This document shows, piece after piece, positions 30,273-62,314 of a stretch of DNA of 64,000 bases. The first letter of the stretch is position 1, and each line of letters begins with the position of its first letter. The DNA comes from Candidatus Gastranaerophilales bacterium. Lineage in GTDB: Bacteria > Cyanobacteriota > Vampirovibrionia > Gastranaerophilales > Gastranaerophilaceae. Where the stretch lies: assembly GCA_944324945.1 (NCBI GenBank), contig CALUYE010000007.1, forward strand, positions 2,501 through 66,500. Direction: 5' to 3'. The position numbers and the translations under genes are program-made. The notes beneath the pieces are model-generated. The model saw only the letters and a list, made by a program, of their open reading frames with translations, was not told where the DNA came from and made no database searches.

Positions 30273-31067
30273 TTACTCTTTTTGAATGGATTTATTCAAC
30301 CATTCTTTAGCTTTGTAGCCTATAAGCATCTTCCCATCCGCACGAATACCAAAAGCAAAAGGGTCTTCACCTTTATCGATACCGTCTATATCCATACAAA
30401 ATAATTTGTAATTTATATCAAAACCGTTTAAACCCCGATTAGTCATATCCGTATCGGGTGATGCAAACCATCTTCCATCTGTTATTGGTTCACAGTCTTT
30501 GTCATTTTCTATATTATCAAGACAGAATCTGGTATCATTGTTTAAATGCCTTGCACTTTTAATGGAAATACCGAAAGTGGTAGCGGGTGCGCTTTGATAA
30601 AACACTATCCCGTCAGCCGTTACAATTTCCGCTCCCACTGCTTTGGCTCTTGATTTACAAATATCATCATAATTCCATAAATTTTCATCTTTTGCCCAGT
30701 CGCTTTTATCGGGATTTAACCATATACTTGCCTGCGCTTCAGAGCTTCCTTTAGATAGAGAACAATCAACACTTTTGGTGCTTATTGTATCTGCAAACGT
30801 TTCACAAAAATACGTAATATCCCCATCATGCTCCCCGTCAATCGTATTTCCGTTTGCTCTTGTACCCAAGTCCCCATTTTGATAATATCTATCTGATGAG
30901 ACAAGCTCACGAATTACCGTATTTAGAGTATTATATCCTTTTTTAAATTTCATAACCTGTTCATCGGGAGAACTCTGAAACGCTACAGGTAAAAGTATCA
31001 TGGTAAGAACGCCTATTATAACTAAAACGATTAATATCTCGGCTAATGTAAAAGCGTATTTTTTCAT
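30273..31067 (-). CDS. Prepilin-type N-terminal cleavage/methylation domain protein, paralog 2
   Basis: MKKYA|FTLAEILIVLVIIGVLTMILLP, with AAGGAG SD. Residues 6-68 and the last 50 aa are near-identical to paralogs 1 and 3; the centre is unrelated. Confidence 0.85.
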   Translation of the reverse strand: MKKYAFTLAEILIVLVIIGVLTMILLPVAFQSSPDEQVMKFKKGYNTLNTVIRELVSSDRYYQNGDLGTRANGNTIDGEHDGDITYFCETFADTISTKSVDCSLSKGSSEAQASIWLNPDKSDWAKDENLWNYDDICKSRAKAVGAEIVTADGIVFYQSAPATTFGISIKSARHLNNDTRFCLDNIENDKDCEPITDGRWFASPDTDMTNRGLNGFDINYKLFCMDIDGIDKGEDPFAFGIRADGKMLIGYKAKEWLNKSIQKE

Positions 31068-31548: not shown

Positions 31549-31632
31549 TTAAAAATACTCTTAATTAAGTATATAAATACAATCATATATAAAATATAAT
31601 ATTAAAAGCGCATTATAGTGCGGATATTAATC

Positions 31633-32820
31633 ATGATTAAAACGGTTTTAACAGATAAATCACAAAATTCAAAAGAATTATTGTCATCTTATTTAAAAAA
31701 TGCGGCAGGCATTGATTTTATTGCGTGTTTTGATAATCTTTGCGATATAGAAAATTTTGATAACATTGATTTAATTATTTTTAATATTTCTTTATCCGAT
31801 GAAGAAGAAACCTTAAAGCAGATTAATGAAATTAAACAAAAAAACGAAAATATTAAATTTATAGCGCTCAGCGATGATATGGATTCCATGCTTGCTAAAA
31901 ACACTTTAAATAATGGTGTATCCGATTTTTTGTTTAAACCTGTTATAGGAAGTATTTTAGAAGCTTCGATTAAAAAAATTAATTTTCCAAAAAAAATAAA
32001 AGAAGAACAAACAATTAAAAAAGCAAAGACAATAAGCGTTTTTTCTCTTAAAGGAGGAGTGGGTAAAACATCTGTTGCGGTTAATTTAGCTTATGAAATT
32101 GAAAAAAAGACAAATAAAAATGTTTGTCTTTTGGATTTTAATTCAAGTTCTTCTGATTGCGCTTTATTTTTGGGTTTAAATTCAAATAATAATATCGATG
32201 ATTTATTAAATGAATTTCAATATTCAAATAAAGAAAAAGCCCTTTCCTTGTTTGAAAAATTTCAAAATACTAATCTATATGTTTTAAGTACAGCATCCGA
32301 TAGCCTTGATTTTAAAATTACTCCCTTAAAAATAAATTTAATTATAAATTCTCTAAAAAATATTTTTGATTATATAATCATAGACACATACTGTGCTTAT
32401 GATGAAAACAATCTTGCCGTTTTAAATTCAAGCGATTTAATTTTATATATTTCAATTTTAAGCCAAAACGTTATAAAAAGTACTCAATCAATGATGGAAA
32501 TGTTTTCAAAAATAGGCTATAATCAGGAAAAAATTAAATTAATACTAAACAGATACGCGCAAGATTCTCAAATTTCAATTGAAGAATTCGAAAAAGAAGT
32601 CAATAAAGAAGTATTTATAACCCTGCCAAACAATTATTTAACAATGTCGGATGCGATAAACAGGCAAAATCCGCTCGATATTACTAATCCGCAGTCAAAT
32701 ATTGCAAAAGCTTTTAAAAAATTAGCTCTAAGTCTTGATGAAATTGATATAAACGCATTAAATTCAACAAAACAATACAACCATGGAATTTACAACATAA
32801 TCCGAAAGATGGGAGAATGA
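31633..32820 (+). CDS. TadZ/CpaE-like protein: atypical (pseudo-)receiver domain fused to a ParA/MinD-type ATPase
   Basis: The N-domain has receiver topology, but the phospho-acceptor position reads DLIIFNISL (Asn) while the ...FLFKP Lys is kept. Deviant Walker A VFSLKGGVGKTSVAVNLA and Walker B YIIIDT. ATG 31633 preferred over GTG 31618. Confidence 0.7.
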   Translation: MIKTVLTDKSQNSKELLSSYLKNAAGIDFIACFDNLCDIENFDNIDLIIFNISLSDEEETLKQINEIKQKNENIKFIALSDDMDSMLAKNTLNNGVSDFLFKPVIGSILEASIKKINFPKKIKEEQTIKKAKTISVFSLKGGVGKTSVAVNLAYEIEKKTNKNVCLLDFNSSSSDCALFLGLNSNNNIDDLLNEFQYSNKEKALSLFEKFQNTNLYVLSTASDSLDFKITPLKINLIINSLKNIFDYIIIDTYCAYDENNLAVLNSSDLILYISILSQNVIKSTQSMMEMFSKIGYNQEKIKLILNRYAQDSQISIEEFEKEVNKEVFITLPNNYLTMSDAINRQNPLDITNPQSNIAKAFKKLALSLDEIDINALNSTKQYNHGIYNIIRKMGE

Positions 32821-39087: not shown

Positions 39088-39126
39088 CACTATTGACATA
39101 GTGGTTTCTATACTATTATAATAGTG
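39088..39126. promoter_or_regulatory. Twin 16-bp palindromic operators overlapping the -35 and -10 of the pilin-3 promoter
   Basis: CACTATtgacATAGTG (39088-39103) and TACTATtataATAGTG (39111-39126), with centres 23 bp apart. Confidence 0.65.
39094..39122 (+). promoter_or_regulatory. Consensus sigma70 promoter for pilin paralog 3
   Basis: TTGACA (39094-39099), a 17-nt spacer, then TATAAT (39117-39122). It lies 44 nt upstream of ATG 39166. Confidence 0.75.
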
Positions 39127-39165
39127 GATAAAGATAATATTATTTTTATTGAGATAGGAATTTAT

Positions 39166-39924
39166 ATGAGAAAGTTTGGTTTTACTTTAGCGGAAATTTT
39201 AATCGTTTTAGTTATAATAGGCGTTTTAACCATGATACTTTTACCGATTGCATTTCAGAGTTCTCCTGATGAACAGGTTATGAAATTTAAAAAAGGATAT
39301 AATACATTAGGTACTGTCATTCGTGAACTTGTAACATCAGATAAATATTATCAAAACGGAGACTTAGGGCTTAAAAAAGACGGTACGCTTATTTTAAATA
39401 ATGATAATACAAGAAGCTATTTTTGCGAAACTTTTTCGGATGTTGTAAGCACAAAAAATGTAAATTGTATGGAAGATAATTTAGTAAGAGGAACGGTTTT
39501 ATTAAACAGACAAGAAGTGGGCACAGGGTACACCCCTAAAACTCCAAGCGAAGAAGATATTAAAAATTCAAAGGAACTTTTTGATACAAACTGCAAAAAT
39601 GCCCAAAAAGACATGCCTGAAGAAATCGTATTAAATGACGATACGATTTTTTATAACGCGGGTACTGCTGCTTTTGGCTCCCATGAAACCTATAGTGAAG
39701 ACGGGACGCCGATTCACCTTCGTTTTTTCTCGCCGCCCGATCAGTTTCCCGCTAATTATTGTGATGAAAACGGTTTTGATATAGCCTATAAGACTTTTTG
39801 CATGGATATAGACGGCTTTAATAAAGGCGAAGACCCTTTCGGTTTTGGAATAAGAGCAGATGGAAAAATCTTAACGGGTGCGCGTGCGGATGAATGGATA
39901 AATAAATCTATTCAAAAAGATTAA
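39166..39924 (+). CDS. Prepilin-type N-terminal cleavage/methylation domain protein, paralog 3
   Basis: MRKFG|FTLAEILIVLVIIGVLTMILLP. ATG 39166 preferred because the track's upstream start lies in the promoter. Conserved N- and C-blocks as in paralogs 1 and 2. Confidence 0.85.
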   Translation: MRKFGFTLAEILIVLVIIGVLTMILLPIAFQSSPDEQVMKFKKGYNTLGTVIRELVTSDKYYQNGDLGLKKDGTLILNNDNTRSYFCETFSDVVSTKNVNCMEDNLVRGTVLLNRQEVGTGYTPKTPSEEDIKNSKELFDTNCKNAQKDMPEEIVLNDDTIFYNAGTAAFGSHETYSEDGTPIHLRFFSPPDQFPANYCDENGFDIAYKTFCMDIDGFNKGEDPFGFGIRADGKILTGARADEWINKSIQKD

Positions 39925-40583
39925 AGCAATTTATCAACGTATTCAATTATTTTTTGATGAATTTCCTGTGGCGATTTTGTGCCGTCAAGTTCGATAAAAT
40001 TATATTCTTTTATTAATTTTTTATATTCCAAAAGGCATCTTTTTTGATATATCTCAAAGCTGTTATAAATATCCGTTGACAGACCTATGTCTCTGCCTGC
40101 TTCAAAATAATCAAGACCGCCGTTTTTTGCAATTAATCTTTTAATTAAAATATCAACGGGAACATTTAAATAAAAAACTAAATCAGGCTCGGGGGCAAAT
40201 TCATAAAGATTTTTTACCCATTCAATGTTATGTCCTCTGACGGAATCTCTAACGTATGCCGTATAAATGTATCTATCCATTAAAACGACAAATCCAGCTT
40301 TAAGCGCGGGTATAATTTCGTTTTCGAGTCTGTCTGTGTAGTCTGCGGCATATAAAAGAGAATATGTTGTTGTGTTTAACATATTTTTTTCTTTTGCTTC
40401 ATTGATTACGCCCGAAATTAATCTTGAAGTTTTCCACTGGGAGACTGTGCAGCCGTAGCATTTATTTTTAATATATTGCGATAATAAATTAACCTGGCTC
40501 GATCTTCCCGAACCATCCGTTCCTTCAATTACTATCAATAACCCGTCGTAACCGTGGGGTGTTTTATTATTCTTTGTTTTCAT
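39921..40583 (-). CDS. Thymidylate-kinase-like protein B (P-loop Lys replaced by Arg)
   Basis: LLIVIEGTDGSGRSSQ (consensus GxxGxGK[ST]) and a DRY motif (LMDRYIYTAY). About 45% identical by eye to the upstream paralog. Confidence 0.7.
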   Translation of the reverse strand: MKTKNNKTPHGYDGLLIVIEGTDGSGRSSQVNLLSQYIKNKCYGCTVSQWKTSRLISGVINEAKEKNMLNTTTYSLLYAADYTDRLENEIIPALKAGFVVLMDRYIYTAYVRDSVRGHNIEWVKNLYEFAPEPDLVFYLNVPVDILIKRLIAKNGGLDYFEAGRDIGLSTDIYNSFEIYQKRCLLEYKKLIKEYNFIELDGTKSPQEIHQKIIEYVDKLL

Positions 40584-41253
40584 TTAAAACTTTTCTTTCT
40601 TTTAAAAGCGCACTTACTTTTTCTCTTAAAAATTTTTGTTTATTGCGGATACTGTCAAGTGCATCGATTTTTATTAAGCCGAATTCATCAATCATTTGTT
40701 TATATTGTTCTACAATTCTGTTTTGAAAAATGACATAACTTTTATAAGGGTTATTTGATAACTTCATATCCATGCCCGCTTCATAAAAACTTGGTTGTCT
40801 GTTTGAGCAGATTCGCTCTAAGCTGTCTTTGGGGCTTACGTCAAAATAAAAAGTTATATCGGGTTTAATTGCAAAAGAATACATATTCCTAACCCATTTC
40901 GGATCAACATTACGCGCAACATCACGTGCAAATGCGGTATAAACATATCTATCCGCCAAAACAACAAAGCCTGCTTTAAGAGCGGGTTTTATTGTGCGTT
41001 CCAATCTGTCTGCAAAATCAACGGCATGCAAAAGAGAAAAAGTTCTTCCCGATAAAAGATTTTTCTTTTTTGCTTTTTTTGTCGTATTTGAAATTAAATC
41101 AGACGAATTCCACTGGGTTAAAATTGTATCAACATTTATTGAATTAAGCCATGAGTGCAACAATTCAATCTGGGTTGATTTACCTGAACCGTCAATTCCT
41201 TCAACACAAATTAATACACCTTTATAGTCATGGTTTTTTGAAAATCTTATCAT
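40567..41253 (-). CDS. Thymidylate-kinase-like protein A
   Basis: LICVEGIDGSGKSTQ P-loop and LADRYVYTAF. Overlaps the downstream paralog by 17 nt. Confidence 0.75.
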   Translation of the reverse strand: MIRFSKNHDYKGVLICVEGIDGSGKSTQIELLHSWLNSINVDTILTQWNSSDLISNTTKKAKKKNLLSGRTFSLLHAVDFADRLERTIKPALKAGFVVLADRYVYTAFARDVARNVDPKWVRNMYSFAIKPDITFYFDVSPKDSLERICSNRQPSFYEAGMDMKLSNNPYKSYVIFQNRIVEQYKQMIDEFGLIKIDALDSIRNKQKFLREKVSALLKERKVLNENKE

Positions 41254-45309: not shown

Positions 45310-46761
45310 CTAAATTTTTCCAAGGATATTCAATTTATAATCAAGAGGAATTTCTTCATAACATATAACGGGTATATCCATAAATAATTGAGATACAAGA
45401 ATAAATACAATTTGCCTGTATTGCTGGCATACGACAAGCACTGCGTTTTGATTGATTATGTTTTGCCTTGTTTCTTTTAAGATTTTTTTAAACTTTGAAA
45501 ATTTTGAAATGTCTATTTTGACATTTGCTTCTTCTTTATTTGTTTGTTTTTCAAGTAAATCAAGAGTATCATCATCTATTTCGTAAGCAAAAATTTCTTT
45601 ATCTTTATTTGAAACACTCTTTGCAATTTGCCTTGATAAAGCCATTCTTAATTTATCTAAAAGATCGGATTTTACGGGGTCATCCGAAAAATCGTTTAAT
45701 TTTTCAAAAATATAGACAATATCTCTAACACTCACTTTTTCTCTGATTAGTTGCACAAGGATATATTTAAGTTCTGAAACGCTTAAATAATCCCCGATGA
45801 TTGAATCCGTTAAAAATGAATTTTTTTCGTTTACAAATTCGATATATCTGTTTAAATCAGTATAATCAAAAATTTCATCAACATGAACAATGCTGTAATA
45901 GTTTAAATAATTTGCAATATATTGCGAAGCATCAATTCCTTCAAGCCAAAAATCCCTGCAATCGTTTTTATTAATCCAGATTAATTTTCTTTTTGTTAAG
46001 GGGTCTTTTGTTTTGTGAGAATTTTTCGGCGCTTTTGAAATGTTTAATTCGTCTTCAAAAAACGCAAGATGCTCAGGATACGCCTTTGCATTTATTACAC
46101 TTACCCCGTGGATATTAATTGAAAACTCAAATTCATCAAAAGAAGTGTTTTCAATAAATTGAACTTTCGGGATAATGTAGCCCAGTTCTTTTGTTAAATC
46201 CTGTCTTACTTTAAGAGTTTGAGCAACCAGGTTATTTTCGCCCGTCGGATCACAAAGACAATAGTTTTCGCTTGATAAACTTATTGATAACTTTTCTTCT
46301 CCTAAAAATTTAGACATTTTATAAGGAGATAAAACCTCGTTTAAGTCTTTTTTTAAAGAATTTAATTCGTCAATATCTTTTTTAATTTCTTCGTTTAAGA
46401 TGTCTCTTTCTTGTTCTTTAGAACTTTCAAGAAATTTTTTTATTTTTTCTATTTTGTCTTTTTTATCTTTTATTTTTTTCTGTAAATTTATACAAATCTC
46501 ATAAGGCTCTTCTTTTGTATAAAGCATGCGCTCAACGGAATTTCTGAAATTAATTATATCTTCGTTTGAATCATCCTGCATATTTTCCACTTCTTTTGTA
46601 AAAATGCAGTTATATACTATTTTTGAATTTTGCTCCGCTTCATAAATGGAATATAATTCCCAGCCTGTGCTTGACATGGCGTTAAGCGTATTTTCAAGAA
46701 GAACGGTGTCGTCTGTGGGTATTGATTTTATTGAAAATTCCTGTCTGAATTCTTTATTCAT
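45310..46761 (-). CDS. Soluble FlhA-cytoplasmic-domain (FHIPEP C-terminal) paralog with novel N-terminal domain and coiled coil
   Basis: Residues ~165-483 are collinear with FlhA_C: VRQDLTKELGYIIPKVQFIENTS..EFSINIHGV, LIWINKND, IANYLNYYSIVHVDEIF, LVQLIREKVSVRDIVYIFEKLND, LRMALSRQI. No TM segments. N-terminus contains GWELYSIYE (DUF4177-like). Residues ~90-150 are K/E-rich coiled coil. Confidence 0.7.
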   Translation of the reverse strand: MNKEFRQEFSIKSIPTDDTVLLENTLNAMSSTGWELYSIYEAEQNSKIVYNCIFTKEVENMQDDSNEDIINFRNSVERMLYTKEEPYEICINLQKKIKDKKDKIEKIKKFLESSKEQERDILNEEIKKDIDELNSLKKDLNEVLSPYKMSKFLGEEKLSISLSSENYCLCDPTGENNLVAQTLKVRQDLTKELGYIIPKVQFIENTSFDEFEFSINIHGVSVINAKAYPEHLAFFEDELNISKAPKNSHKTKDPLTKRKLIWINKNDCRDFWLEGIDASQYIANYLNYYSIVHVDEIFDYTDLNRYIEFVNEKNSFLTDSIIGDYLSVSELKYILVQLIREKVSVRDIVYIFEKLNDFSDDPVKSDLLDKLRMALSRQIAKSVSNKDKEIFAYEIDDDTLDLLEKQTNKEEANVKIDISKFSKFKKILKETRQNIINQNAVLVVCQQYRQIVFILVSQLFMDIPVICYEEIPLDYKLNILGKI

Positions 46762-46793: not shown

Positions 46794-46824
46794 TAAAAAA
46801 AGCTCTTGTTTGCTTACAAGAGCT
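46794..46824 (-). terminator. Intrinsic-terminator-like hairpin in the 5' leader of the FlhA_C-like gene
   Basis: Minus strand reads AGCTCTTGT-aagcaa-ACAAGAGCT followed by TTTTTTT. It lies 33 nt upstream of ATG 46761 and downstream of a candidate promoter TTGAAA (46870-46865)-N18-TATAAA (46846-46841). Confidence 0.5.
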
Positions 46825-46926: not shown

Positions 46927-47574
46927 ATGAATATTATAAGAGTAAAAAAGCTAAAAGCTTTCACGCTGGCTGAAATTTTAATAGTTGTTATGATAATTGG
47001 CGTTATATCGATTCTGGCGCTCAGGAGTTTGAACACTAAAAATTTTGAAGAAAAGCAATTTCAGGCAAGTGCATATAAAATCGTTGAAGAATTCCAACAG
47101 GCAAGCGTTAAAGTTCGTGAAATTGAAACCGAAAGCTGTCCTGCAAGCCAATTTGCAGTTGATATAATGGGTGATAAAGAATACGCAATCTATAAAGACG
47201 GCTCTCTTGCAAATACGCAGCAAGTAATGGATATGTATTCGAATTATCTTAAAATGGAAAATATGGGGCTTAATTTTTGTGATATTACAACCGCATTCTC
47301 GGCTGATTATTGCGCAGGCGCTGCAGCCGGTCAAATAATAGGTGCAAAAGTTGCAGGCGATATGTATGTAGGTTTGGAAGTAATTGCAGACACAAGCTCC
47401 GGCGAGCTTGGGGATTGTCCATCATATTACAGAGTTAATCCAAATACTTTAGTCAACGGAAACGGAAAATGCTGGGGCAGATTGTATTTTGATGCAAACG
47501 GCAAAAAAGGACCCAATGTATTTGGCCAGGATGCATTTGTGTTTGGTTTAGATGAATCAGGGGTTATTTATTAA
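46927..47574 (+). CDS. Prepilin-type N-terminal cleavage/methylation domain protein (4th, divergent type)
   Basis: KLKA|FTLAEILIVVMIIGVISILAL. C-terminal YFDANGKKGPNVFGQDAFVFGLDESG motif, common in pilin-like proteins. Not a member of the 3-paralog family. Confidence 0.8.
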   Translation: MNIIRVKKLKAFTLAEILIVVMIIGVISILALRSLNTKNFEEKQFQASAYKIVEEFQQASVKVREIETESCPASQFAVDIMGDKEYAIYKDGSLANTQQVMDMYSNYLKMENMGLNFCDITTAFSADYCAGAAAGQIIGAKVAGDMYVGLEVIADTSSGELGDCPSYYRVNPNTLVNGNGKCWGRLYFDANGKKGPNVFGQDAFVFGLDESGVIY

Positions 47575-51562: not shown

Positions 51563-52150
51563 TTATTCAGGTTCCTCTTCTATTCCGAAAATTTGATTTT
51601 CGATTATATTAATTAACCTGTCCTGCCAGCCTGCGTCTTTTTTAATAAAGATATCGGCACCTCCGTTTAGACATTTTATTTTATCTTCGGTTTTATTGGA
51701 TGCCGTAATTACTATAATTTTTGTGTTTAAGTTGTTTTTTGTAATAATTTTTTTCGTTTCATGAAGCAAAGTATAACCTTCTTGTTCGGTTGAAACAAAT
51801 AAGTCCATGATTATATAGTCATATTTATTGTTTGCAAAAGAATTCATTGCTCCAAAAACATCTTTTGAAACATGAACATTGTATCCTATATTTTTTAATA
51901 AAATTTTTAACTGATAAGTTACGATTCCTATATCGTCAACAACTAAAATATTATTTGTTTCTCTATCCATCGCCTGAAAGCCTTCTTCTTCCGAAATTGT
52001 TTCAGGATTTACCAGAGATTTTAATTTAAAAATGCATTCAAAAAAAGCTTCTTCACTGTATTTTTCGGGAATTTTTAAACCCGCAATATTAAAAAGTTCG
52101 TTTGCAATTTCTTTATTTATTTCAACTGTTTGTTTTATTTCTTCTTCCAT
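51563..52150 (-). CDS. CheY-like single-domain response regulator with ~65-aa N-terminal extension
   Basis: ILVVDDIG, acceptor YIIMDLFV, ITAS and IFIKKD: all receiver signature residues are present. Start overlaps the fliN stop. Confidence 0.8.
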   Translation of the reverse strand: MEEEIKQTVEINKEIANELFNIAGLKIPEKYSEEAFFECIFKLKSLVNPETISEEEGFQAMDRETNNILVVDDIGIVTYQLKILLKNIGYNVHVSKDVFGAMNSFANNKYDYIIMDLFVSTEQEGYTLLHETKKIITKNNLNTKIIVITASNKTEDKIKCLNGGADIFIKKDAGWQDRLINIIENQIFGIEEEPE

Positions 52151-52487: not shown

Positions 52488-53441
52488 TTACTCCTTTATT
52501 TTGTATTGATCAACAATTTTTATACATACTTTATTGTTAATTACCCCCGGAATTACAAAAAATTTCTTCTTTTTGTTAACACAGGCAATTAATTCTTCAT
52601 TTAACTTTTGATCTAATTTTATAACATCGTTTATTTTTAAATCAAGCACATCATTTATTTGAAGCTTTGTCTTACCGAGTATGACCTGCATTTCAAGATA
52701 TGCACCTTTAATTTTTTCTAATGTTTCATTCCTTCCGACTTCGTTTGATGCAACGCTTGCATGCTGATATATATATTGAGGCGTTAATTTTGGTAAAACC
52801 GTTTCTAAAACAGGATACGGGAAACAAAGATTCATTAAGCCGAAATTCTTTTGTCCCAATCTTACTTCAAAAGAAATAAGCGAGACGATTTCGCCGTTTG
52901 TTGTAATGGGGACGGAATGATATCCGTTAGCCAAGGCGACAAATTCCGATTTAACGGGCAATATGGCGCTCCATGATTCTTCAAGTATTTTTATTATTTT
53001 TTCGGTGAATTTTGTTGTTAAAAGTTCTTCAATTTGTGTTAATTCTTTCCCATGTTCATTTACAATGCCTGCACCTCCAAGCATCCTGTCTAATACAACA
53101 GCCAAAACATCAGGACTCATGCCCATAGAAACTTCACCCGTTAAGGGGTTTAATTTAAATACCATGTTTTGAATATTGCTTGGCATTGAACAGATATATT
53201 CTTCATAAGTCAATTGATCAACGGAAATTACATCAATTCTTACTTCCATTCTTAAATATGCCGTTAAAATCTGCGCAAGATGGCGGACAAAATCACGGTG
53301 AATATCCTGTAGGGCTTTTAAATGTTCTTTTGAGAATTTATCGGGGCGCCTGAAATTATAAAGCTTACAGCCTCTTACAAGCTCGTTGGTGATAATATTT
53401 TCCTCGATATTTTCTTCGCTAAAATTTTGATTTTCCATCAT
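52488..53441 (-). CDS. fliM: Flagellar motor switch protein FliM
   Basis: LYNFRRPDKFSKEHLKALQDIHRDF..., LDRMLGG, and a C-terminal SpoA-like domain. Confidence 0.9.
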   Translation of the reverse strand: MMENQNFSEENIEENIITNELVRGCKLYNFRRPDKFSKEHLKALQDIHRDFVRHLAQILTAYLRMEVRIDVISVDQLTYEEYICSMPSNIQNMVFKLNPLTGEVSMGMSPDVLAVVLDRMLGGAGIVNEHGKELTQIEELLTTKFTEKIIKILEESWSAILPVKSEFVALANGYHSVPITTNGEIVSLISFEVRLGQKNFGLMNLCFPYPVLETVLPKLTPQYIYQHASVASNEVGRNETLEKIKGAYLEMQVILGKTKLQINDVLDLKINDVIKLDQKLNEELIACVNKKKKFFVIPGVINNKVCIKIVDQYKIKE

Positions 53442-61450: not shown

Positions 61451-62314
61451 CTATATTAAGCTTGAAGCAATTGCAGGTGCCTGATTAGCTTGAGCTAACA
61501 AGGAAACCGAAATTTGCTGTAATATTTGATTTTGAGTATAGCTTGAAGCTTCAGCGGCTATATCGGCATCGGTAATAACCGATTTAGAGCTTGATAGGTT
61601 TTCATATTGAGTTGTAAGTGTATCTAAAGCTGAAGATAGACGGTTTTCGGCAGAACCTATCGTTGATTTTCTTGCAGTGATTGAGTTAATTGCGTTGTCT
61701 AAATTTTGAATTGCAGCCGATAATTCAGCAGACTTCATGGTTGAAACATCAAAATTTGCAGCAGCCATGGTTGTTAGAGCGCTGAATTTAACCGATTCAA
61801 AAATTGATTTATCAACAGAAATAACGTTATCTCCGCGCGCATCTGCACCGACTTGGAATTGAGCACCTTCGGAAAGAGGATCATCTGCTTCATCAGCAGT
61901 AAATAAGTGCAGACCTGAATATTTAGAAGATGTTGAAATTCTGTCGATTTCTTCCATACGTTCCGCAATTTCAGCTTGCATTGCATCTTTTTCATCCGTT
62001 GAATAAGTGCTGTTTTTTGCTTGAAGTGTCAAGTCACGGATTCTTGATAAGTTGTCTTGAACAACATCTAAATTACCTTCAACGGTTGATAACATGTTGT
62101 TTGCGTTTTGAATGTTGTTTTGAGCGATTTTGTTACCGTCTAATTGAACATCCATCTTTGCAGCAATAACTGTTCCTGCTGCATCGTCTCCTGCACGGTT
62201 AATTTTCAAACCGCTTGACATACGCTCCATTGTTGTAGACAAATTGCTTGTAGCACTGTTTAAGATGTTTTGAATCTTAATCGAATCAACGTTTGTGTTA
62301 ATTGTAACTGACAT
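61451..62314 (-). CDS. fliC: Flagellin (short form, D0/D1 only)
   Basis: MSVTINTNVDSI...ERMSSGLKINRAGDDAAG at the N-terminus and ...TQNQILQQISVSLLAQANQAPAIASSLI at the C-terminus. 287 aa. Confidence 0.95.
   Translation of the reverse strand: MSVTINTNVDSIKIQNILNSATSNLSTTMERMSSGLKINRAGDDAAGTVIAAKMDVQLDGNKIAQNNIQNANNMLSTVEGNLDVVQDNLSRIRDLTLQAKNSTYSTDEKDAMQAEIAERMEEIDRISTSSKYSGLHLFTADEADDPLSEGAQFQVGADARGDNVISVDKSIFESVKFSALTTMAAANFDVSTMKSAELSAAIQNLDNAINSITARKSTIGSAENRLSSALDTLTTQYENLSSSKSVITDADIAAEASSYTQNQILQQISVSLLAQANQAPAIASSLI

Follow-up and report, generated by a model that had tools for sequence, protein, structure and literature searches.

A soluble paralog of the FlhA cytoplasmic domain with its own N-terminal module in Gastranaerophilales

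Introduction

Every type III secretion system, whether flagellar or injectisome, selects its substrates at a ring formed by the cytoplasmic domain of FlhA (FlhA_C). According to the literature searches made here, it has previously been studied only as part of a membrane protein or as a laboratory fragment. A 64,000-nucleotide stretch of a Candidatus Gastranaerophilales contig (CALUYE010000007.1, positions 2,501 to 66,500 of the forward strand; hereafter the window) carries a gene whose product resembles this domain. An earlier note, written from the letters of the window, described the product as a stand-alone, soluble FlhA_C paralog with a new N-terminal module. The locus therefore raises two questions: whether the gene is an entity of its own or the 3' half of a disrupted flhA, and what a free-standing FlhA_C would do in the cell. 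The first question has a secure answer, which is that the 483-residue protein is a lineage-specific and soluble FlhA_C paralog maintained by selection. For the second, we tentatively favor a cytoplasmic accessory of flagellar type III export that can form rings and whose ligand specificity is altered, a proposal that, taken as a whole, falls slightly short of an even chance, with most of the doubt lying on function. The gene is placed as follows, in window coordinates.

45310..46761, minus strand: soluble FlhA_C paralog, whole coding sequence, from the open reading frame (ORF) list; ATG start, 483 residues plus stop codon

A complete FlhA cytoplasmic domain without a membrane domain

The 483-residue protein matches the Pfam family FHIPEP (PF00771) with E=4.3e-45 and 154.8 bits (gathering score 29.1). 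The match joins residues 128-474 to profile positions 321-655 of 657, which is solely the region past the last membrane helix. With the FlhA equivalog model TIGR01398, the protein scores 142.5 bits over model positions 320-678, below the cut-off of 772.1, and its score with the SctV equivalog TIGR01399 is lower (88.5 bits, cut-off 692). The closest solved structure is B. subtilis FlhA_C (3mix, E=5e-24), which HMMER aligns end to end, and the solved FlhA cytoplasmic domains of Vibrio (7amy) and Salmonella (6ch1) were aligned as well. The signature blocks ELGYIIPKV, WI, VSVRDIVYIFEKLND, and LRMALSRQI, by which FlhA_C had been recognized in the C-terminal ~320 residues, fall inside these alignments.

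The predicted structure agrees with the profiles. In an AlphaFold model of the whole protein, built with 44 family sequences as input (mean predicted local distance difference test score, pLDDT, 79.7), the FlhA_C-like body begins at about residue 158. Foldseek superposes this body on Salmonella FlhA_C (6ch2_A) over 335 columns with E=1e-19 and a target-normalised template modelling score (TM-score) of 0.83; the injectisome SctV domains rank after it (E ~1e-19 to 1e-16). By fold and alignment, the cytoplasmic domain of the paralog is complete, with the linker and subdomains D1-D4 spanning residues ~128-483. Its main part is the following.

45313..46326, minus strand: C-terminal part of the FlhA linker (SPxxMxxxLG; M149 at the position of Salmonella W354) and FlhA_C subdomains D1-D4, residues 146-483, from Foldseek, the 3mix, 7amy, and 6ch1 alignments, and site maps

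The FHIPEP membrane domain is absent. No membrane helix is predicted in the 483-residue protein, and a screen of family representatives for the membrane-domain motifs FPSLLL, MPGKQM, and FYGAMDGASKF found none. The sole hydrophobic peak (Kyte-Doolittle 1.79, residue ~450) is modelled inside the folded C-terminal subdomain (strand 441-444, helix 446-459). When canonical FlhAs were searched against the window by tblastn, only the C-domain match was returned. Because profile coverage is confined to positions 321-655 and membrane motifs and helices are missing, the earlier description of the protein is correct; both the FHIPEP comparison and the structure prediction proposed with it bear it out.

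A conserved three-part N-terminal module

Residues 1-145 form a module in three parts, each conserved in the family alignment.

46585..46761, minus strand: beta-alpha-beta-beta domain, residues 1-59, motif LLNxMSxxGWELYS...YNCIF, weakly DUF4177-like, from AlphaFold2 and the family alignment
46516..46584, minus strand: acidic linker of variable length, residues 60-82, C-terminal part modelled as a low-confidence helix
46327..46515, minus strand: K/E-rich helical hairpin, residues 83-145 (helices 86-113 and 116-144), from AlphaFold2 secondary structure

The first domain is modelled with confidence (pLDDT ~89 for residues 5-59) as strands 5-15, 35-44, and 47-59 and helix 19-31, and L26, N27, W34, E41, and F54 are invariant across the family. 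The linker is modelled as disordered in the full-length model (residues 61-82, pLDDT <50), and its alignment columns are D/E-rich with many indels. The hairpin has 15 Lys and 11 Glu among its 63 residues and carries the family invariants K96, I97, and N123. Its last ~18 residues already fall in the FlhA linker part of the FHIPEP profile, where the match starts (residue 128, position 321). A separate model of residues 1-152 gives the same secondary structure as the full-length model.

The proposal of a ~60-residue alpha/beta domain, DUF4177-like and followed by a K/E-rich coiled coil, thus stands in its topology and in the helical hairpin at residues 86-144, while the likeness to DUF4177 is weak. 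DUF4177 (PF13783) is the sole Pfam family matched reproducibly, by 15 of 16 divergent members at E<=1 (best E=8e-4), and all members stay below threshold. The N-terminal 150 residues of the window protein score 14.5 bits against a gathering score of 25. A fold search of the PDB with the model of residues 1-152 gave no significant match, the best being dodecin, ACT-like, and KCTD C-terminal domains (E 0.03-0.2), so the domain is recorded by topology alone. The module occupies the place of the membrane tether of canonical FlhA, and a role in assembly or docking is plausible.

A widespread family under purifying selection

A word-indexed search recovered 310 homolog clusters; almost all of the 120 listed are 481-489 residues long and 52-98% identical. 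In databases, these homologs are named ‘FHIPEP family type III secretion protein’ or ‘FlhA’ and are assigned to Candidatus Gastranaerophilales or to ‘Cyanobacteria bacterium SIG30’. An exhaustive phmmer search of 1.84 billion representatives adds depth, with ~18 full-length proteins (476-507 residues) that align from residue ~3 to the end at identities down to 32%. A score gap in this search separates the paralog family (at least 244 bits) from canonical FlhA (at most 140 bits).

Genomes were scanned at one per GTDB species with the full-length family alignment and the family peptide [YF][IV]FEK[IL]ND, and at least 396 species genomes were confirmed to carry the family. Among these, the 80 best matches are nearly all named, or clearly of the type of, Gastranaerophilales gut metagenome-assembled genomes (MAGs), with Galligastranaerophilus, Limenecus, and Avigastranaerophilus among the genera; a few are labelled otherwise, for example ‘uncultured Gammaproteobacteria’ or ‘Muribaculaceae’. 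Members are recognized by a length of ~480-500 residues, the N-domain motif LLNxMSxxGWELYS...YNCIF, the hairpin motif IQxKIKEKRxKI...LNxEISK, the peptide [YF][IV]FEK[IL]ND in D3, and the lack of a membrane helix. The window protein carries all the hallmark motifs. Our literature searches found no description of a natural soluble FlhA_C protein or paralog.

Every module is under strong purifying selection. The median ratio of nonsynonymous to synonymous substitution rates (dN/dS), calculated by the Nei-Gojobori method over 12 closely related pairs, is 0.027 for the N-domain, 0.019 for the linker, 0.022 for the hairpin, and 0.042 for FlhA_C (0.039 for the whole coding sequence).

Canonical FlhA is a separate gene of the same lineage

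The best canonical match to the soluble protein among the 1.84 billion representatives is a Vampirovibrionia FlhA of 708 residues (P0149), encoded after fliF and fliH on a contig of 55% GC. Its relatives carry the names Vampirovibrio, Vampirovibrionales, and Melainabacteria. To reach the low-GC gut branch, a Gastranaerophilales MAG contig (L027) that ends in a fliF fragment served as the starting point, followed by related FliF proteins and their contigs. The soluble gene is encoded on L027 too, and ~8-10 kb from it lies SLT-fliE-fliF, the beginning of the operon that holds flhA on the contigs described next. Two of the contigs reached (L090 and L091, GC 32-33%) have the order flgB-flgC-SLT-fliE-fliF-?-fliH-FHIPEP-fliI, in which the FHIPEP proteins of 700 and 706 residues possess the membrane motifs. 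They share 64% identity with P0149 but, in the C-domain, only 24-26% with the soluble protein. A canonical flhA, which had been left to be located, is thus in a fliE-fliF-fliH-flhA-fliI operon on low-GC gut Melainabacteria contigs, and the slot of flhA in the flagellar core operon (fliF-fliG-fliH-flhA-fliI in this lineage) is taken by this separate gene and not by the soluble one.

A side observation on these operons concerns FliF, which is called as two adjacent ORFs on both L090 (4731-6379; 315+248 residues) and L091 (10001-11671; 343+177 residues). Nearly all of the 120 FliF homologs listed (P0416-P0535) are partial and on short contigs. A genuine splitting or shortening of the gene in this lineage would explain this pattern, as would a systematic break of the assemblies at this place.

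The literature may contain a trace of the second gene. Among the 13 flagellar genes common to four Melainabacteria genomes, ‘flhA’ is counted twice, and one of the two copies is flanked by fliH and fliI in ACD20 (Di Rienzi et al., 2013; PMC3787301); the supplements of that paper hold no flhA text. Two flhA genes in these genomes fit a canonical gene plus the paralog.

The C-domain phylogeny proposed in the earlier note was built as a rough, distance-based neighbor-joining tree with a small outgroup of eight canonical FlhAs of other phyla. The soluble family forms a single clade there (100/100 bootstraps), and a larger group made up of it, the canonical Vampirovibrionia FlhA_C, and a second non-canonical family described below (FDYK) splits from the other phyla, again in 100/100 bootstraps. 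The mean C-domain identity of the soluble family is 26% to canonical Vampirovibrionia FlhA_C and 21.5% to other phyla. The simplest reading of these comparisons is that an flhA of the same lineage was duplicated, lost its membrane domain, gained a new N-terminus, and diverged fast; the branching order within the group is not settled.

These results decide the first question. A fragment of a split or disrupted flhA, or a decaying pseudogene, would also match the FHIPEP profile in its C-terminal half only, as is seen here. However, the same ~483-residue architecture, including the N-terminal module, recurs in hundreds of genomes with a dN/dS of 0.04, and an intact canonical FlhA with a C-domain only 24-26% identical exists on the low-GC gut contigs. 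Neither the window nor the 10 kb on either side of the soluble gene in 80 genome loci hold a FHIPEP membrane domain or a fragment of it. A recurrent full-length family under purifying selection, a separate canonical FlhA, and the lack of a membrane fragment nearby lead us to reject the fragment, to which we give next to no credence, in favor of the stand-alone paralog claimed at the outset.

Ring-contact residues are kept and most of the chaperone site is lost

Residues of known function were mapped from Salmonella numbering through a joint alignment, and family counts were taken over 14 sequences. The roles of ring-contact residues follow Terahara 2018 (PMC5916509) and those of the chaperone dimple Inoue 2021 (PMC8166844); further roles of GYXLI and R391 residues are those given in the abstract of PMC9431611.

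The residues that contact neighboring subunits are largely retained, as are some others. R391 (R186 of the window protein) and W465 are invariant in the soluble family, and D456 is kept in 12/14. At the position of W354, the linker anchor is Met or Leu in 12/14 (M149 in the window protein), and the anchor motif SPxxMxxxLG parallels NPNRMYERLG of the canonical FlhA of the lineage. The pocket that would receive the anchor is likewise kept, with consistent substitutions: F400 is replaced by Tyr (13/14), L401 by Ile or Val, E508 by Asp (13/14), and L512 by Tyr in all 14.

The elements of chaperone docking and switching are different. In the GYXLI hinge, G368 is Ser in 13/14 and Y369 is mostly Glu, which gives the family consensus LSEEL. 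In the dimple (D456, F459, T490), F459 is Thr or Ser in 12/14 and T490 is variable (Arg/Asn). H491, which adjoins T490, is variable in the soluble family and invariant in all other groups. Judged from the alignment, the ring-making surfaces of FlhA_C appear to be preserved, and the docking surface for FliS/FliT/FlgN-type chaperones and the open/closed hinge appear to be rewritten.

Preserved ring contacts raise the possibility of a negative regulator or decoy. A soluble copy could insert into or cap the nonameric FlhA_C ring, or titrate FliJ, FliH, or FliI, and so throttle flagellar export when motility is unwanted. Over-produced soluble FlhA_C fragments interfere with motility in Salmonella. 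The ring-contact residues are not only conserved but also resemble those of the lineage’s own FlhA, and in Salmonella the linker region and R391 are required for FliJ binding as well (Terahara 2018; PMC5916509). On the other hand, 24-26% identity to the canonical C-domain and Tyr in place of the canonical Leu at 512 make seamless co-assembly uncertain. A pure inhibitor has no obvious need of a conserved three-part N-terminal module with a dN/dS of ~0.02-0.03, and no regulatory linkage to flagellar genes was seen in 80 genome loci and 84 upstream regions. Since the dimple and the GYXLI hinge are not kept, a plain decoy for FliS/FliT/FlgN-type chaperone complexes is less likely. A decoy or negative regulator of any kind seems to us rather improbable.

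A proposed accessory of flagellar type III export

The preferred reading, a ring-capable export accessory, would work as follows. In a duplicated Vampirovibrionia/Melainabacteria flhA, the eight-helix membrane domain would have been swapped for a beta-alpha-beta-beta domain, an acidic tether, and a hairpin. To judge from the retained residues, the paralog may still oligomerise in the manner of FlhA, with the M149 anchor inserting into the pocket of the neighboring subunit (Y195, I196, D302, Y306) beside the invariant R186 (R391). The paralog would thereby either form a ring of its own or co-assemble with other proteins that bear an FlhA_C, and its N-terminal hairpin and domain would serve for assembly or docking in place of the membrane tether. 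Because F459, T490, H491, and the hinge glycine are lost, the paralog probably does not repeat FliS/FliT/FlgN docking and open/closed switching. More likely, it would bind a different set of partners and serve in the cytoplasm as a platform on which components of flagellar type III export are held, sorted, or regulated.

A link to flagella is supported by the presence of FliM and flagellin in the window, where a response regulator adjoins FliM.

52488..53441, minus strand: FliM (flagellar switch), context only; PF02154 E=1.7e-42 and FliMN_C; 5.7 kb from the paralog
51563..52150, minus strand: response regulator (receiver domain), 195 residues, adjoining FliM
61451..62314, minus strand: flagellin, context only; Flagellin_N E=2.8e-29, Flagellin_C E=3.7e-20; 14.7 kb from the paralog

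FliM shows that the organism keeps flagellar motor genes, and the distances contradict the statement of the earlier note that the paralog is not near other flagellar genes. These genes came from a Pfam scan of window ORFs from ~20.9 kb on; before ~20.9 kb, tblastn of the flagellar-operon loci found no homolog in the window. Synteny of FliM and the response regulator with the soluble gene, at a distance of up to 8-9 kb, is confined to 7 close relatives. As a side observation, FliM stands alone, away from any other flagellar operon, and flagellar genes seem to be scattered in this genome.

Several points weigh against a role in flagellar export. We infer oligomerisation, partners, and the export role of the paralog itself. 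The occurrence of paralog and canonical flhA in the same genome is likewise deduced, from the synteny on L027 and the literature and not from one assembled genome. Of the linker contact seen in Salmonella, the paralog has lost the electrostatic half (E351/D356 with K392/K393), which is also weak in the canonical FlhA of this lineage. The soluble gene is never in a flagellar operon, and its neighbors are variable housekeeping genes. Promoters of the sigma-28 type are not enriched upstream (6/84 loci against a background of 4.4%), as scored with the E. coli/B. subtilis consensus, from which that of the lineage may differ. Finally, a complete flagellar set is present in ~25% of 62 surveyed Gastranaerophilales genomes (2026 preprint), whereas the paralog is in at least 396 species genomes, so it may occur where no flagellum is built. 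Such an occurrence would favor a role with a reduced export core or one independent of flagella.

A second non-canonical family and possible flagellum-independent roles

Many of the 500-700-residue phmmer matches to the soluble protein are not canonical FlhA and belong to a second, membrane-anchored family outside the window, the FDYK type, which has 500-780 residues (P0161, P0162, P0168-P0174, P0188-P0191, P0205, P0209, P0227, and others). Two of its genes are placed as follows.

L006:10001-11788: FDYK-type gene
L008:10001-12079: FDYK-type gene

FDYK proteins have a soluble N-domain of ~190 residues (‘FDYKxFAxxMxxQA...LxPxD’, no Pfam match), 2-4 hydrophobic helices, a linker, and FlhA_C. Their match to the FHIPEP profile begins at ~261 and so takes in only the last two membrane helices. 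The C-domains are 35-50% identical to Vampirovibrionia FlhA_C and mostly keep the GYXLI glycine and H491. FDYK and soluble proteins both have the Tyr-400/Tyr-512 pocket signature, which canonical FlhA does not. The genes are solitary and outside flagellar operons, and on one contig the neighbors are 56-81% identical to Gastranaerophilales MAGs. A variant group (P0157, P0192, P0224) has another N-terminus.

The FDYK family bears on the possibility that the paralog was exapted for a flagellum-independent machine, in which it would join the reduced export-and-rod core or an FDYK protein in a complex that serves secretion or scaffolding and has nothing to do with motility. Most Gastranaerophilales keep such a core (FlhA, FlhB, FliP, FliR, FliI, FliJ, FlgB/C/F/G, FliE) without hook, filament, switch, and stator genes (Soo 2014; 2026 preprint). 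Such a machine would accommodate the finding of the paralog in at least 396 species genomes when only ~25% of surveyed genomes have complete flagella and the rest keep flhB, fliI, and flgG. It would also accommodate the existence of a second non-canonical FlhA_C family, also on a Gastranaerophilales-like contig and with a pocket signature common to the two families and unlike canonical FlhA, and the loss of the chaperone dimple needed for filament-type export. However, the window organism has FliM and flagellin. A supplementary table lists one FlhA per reduced genome (Soo 2014), so the paralog may be missing where exaptation would place it, and no FDYK gene was found near the soluble gene in the loci examined. 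An exapted machine is an unlikely explanation, although one to be taken seriously. The reduced flagellar type III set of Gastranaerophilales may act as a secretion device.

A more speculative extension, which we consider a long shot, is that the paralog forms a second ring-shaped cytoplasmic complex beside the real gate, possibly stacked on or mixed with the FDYK protein. With a ligand specificity of its own, such a complex could sort type III substrates before the gate or belong to a machine unrelated to motility.

The divergent pilin-like gene and other features of the window

The gene next to the paralog and the intergenic region between them have the following features.

46927..47574, plus strand: pilin-like gene, divergent from the paralog; N_methyl motif E=0.0027, below the Pfam cut-off
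46801..46824, minus strand: terminator-like hairpin with T-run, 5' leader; stem of 9 bp with 4 G-C pairs and a T-rich tail, from a consensus scan

The hairpin sits ~40 nt upstream of the start codon of the paralog, in the 165 bp between the divergent genes, and may either act as an attenuator in the leader or terminate read-through from upstream.

The divergent pairing of paralog and pilin-like gene, to which attention had been drawn, is real in the window, but it is not conserved. Only 3/84 loci have a pilin-like ORF that begins no more than 1.5 kb away from the soluble gene, and homologs of the window’s own pilin-like gene occur in only 4 other loci, at differing positions. The pairing therefore carries no functional weight. 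With this gene and other N_methyl genes in the window, the paralog might be taken for an accessory of type IV pili; the lack of conserved linkage and the unrelated context of more distant members make this very improbable, and the pilus link is rejected.

Apart from the paralog, prepilin N-methylation motifs occur in at least three genes dispersed over the window, at 30273-31067 (minus strand), 39124-39924 (plus strand), and 46927-47574 (plus strand). A protein with a receiver domain and a ParA/MinD-type ATPase is encoded at 31618-32820 (plus strand), an architecture that we take to be CpaE/TadZ-like. Together, they suggest a type IV or Tad-like pilus system. Two adjacent, overlapping genes of the thymidylate kinase family at 39921-40583 (220 residues) and 40567-41253 (228 residues), both on the minus strand, are a tandem duplication or paralog pair.

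Significance

The paralog is a natural experiment on which surfaces of FlhA_C assemble and which choose cargo. For specialists in type III secretion, its interest lies in this natural separation of ring-forming from cargo-selecting features, and the family is a candidate for a new regulatory or sorting layer in type III export. A second consequence concerns annotation. Pipelines label the paralog ‘FHIPEP family type III secretion protein’ or ‘FlhA’, and it is probably one of the two flhA genes counted in the paper that founded the Melainabacteria (Di Rienzi et al., 2013). Flagellar gene counts in these gut bacteria may be inflated as a result, which matters for Gastranaerophilales, whose motility and interaction with the host are inferred from how complete the flagellar set is.

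Comparison with known systems

Canonical FlhA of Vampirovibrionia and Gastranaerophilales is the closest sequence relative of the paralog among all canonical FlhAs. The two have in common the C-terminal part of the linker, the four-subdomain C-domain, R391, W465, D456, and the anchor with its pocket. Unlike canonical FlhA, the paralog lacks the eight-helix membrane domain, has a new N-terminal module, and is encoded outside the fliH-flhA-fliI operon. Its C-domain is 24-26% identical to the canonical one, and the GYXLI glycine, F459, T490, and H491 are lost.

FDYK proteins (e.g., P0161 and P0171) are similar to the soluble family in being non-canonical FlhA derivatives related to the FlhA of the same lineage, with a replaced N-terminus, Tyr-400/Tyr-512, and solitary genes. 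However, they keep the last two membrane helices, their N-domain is distinct and without a Pfam match, and they mostly retain the GYXLI glycine and H491. They are also closer to Vampirovibrionia FlhA_C, with 35-50% identity versus ~26% for the soluble family.

The FlhA of chlamydiae is a membrane protein of full length. In Chlamydia pneumoniae, orphan FlhA, FliI, and FliF are export-gate homologs kept outside a complete flagellar system, according to the abstract of PMC2830194. These orphans are a precedent for retention without a full flagellum, although the lineage is unrelated. For the N-terminal module, the nearest comparison is DUF4177 (PF13783), with a similar domain size and weak matches around the GWELYS segment in 15/16 members; the gathering score is never reached (14.5 versus 25 bits), and a solved structure with a significant match was not found.

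The cytoplasmic domains of SctV, InvA, MxiA, YscV, and CdsV have the same fold (Foldseek E ~1e-19 to 1e-16). Their sequences are more distant, as the scores of 88 versus 142 bits indicate, and SctV proteins are all injectisome membrane proteins. The most direct parallel is recombinant Salmonella FlhA_C (residues 328-692; PDB 3A5I, 6CH1-3, 6AI0). As a laboratory fragment, it forms nonameric rings cooperatively through the linker (PMC5916509). The FlhA-like part of the paralog starts about at the boundary of this construct and superposes on it with a TM-score of 0.83. The Salmonella construct is an artificial piece of a membrane protein, whereas the paralog is a natural gene with an extra conserved N-terminal module of ~145 residues and a remodelled chaperone site.

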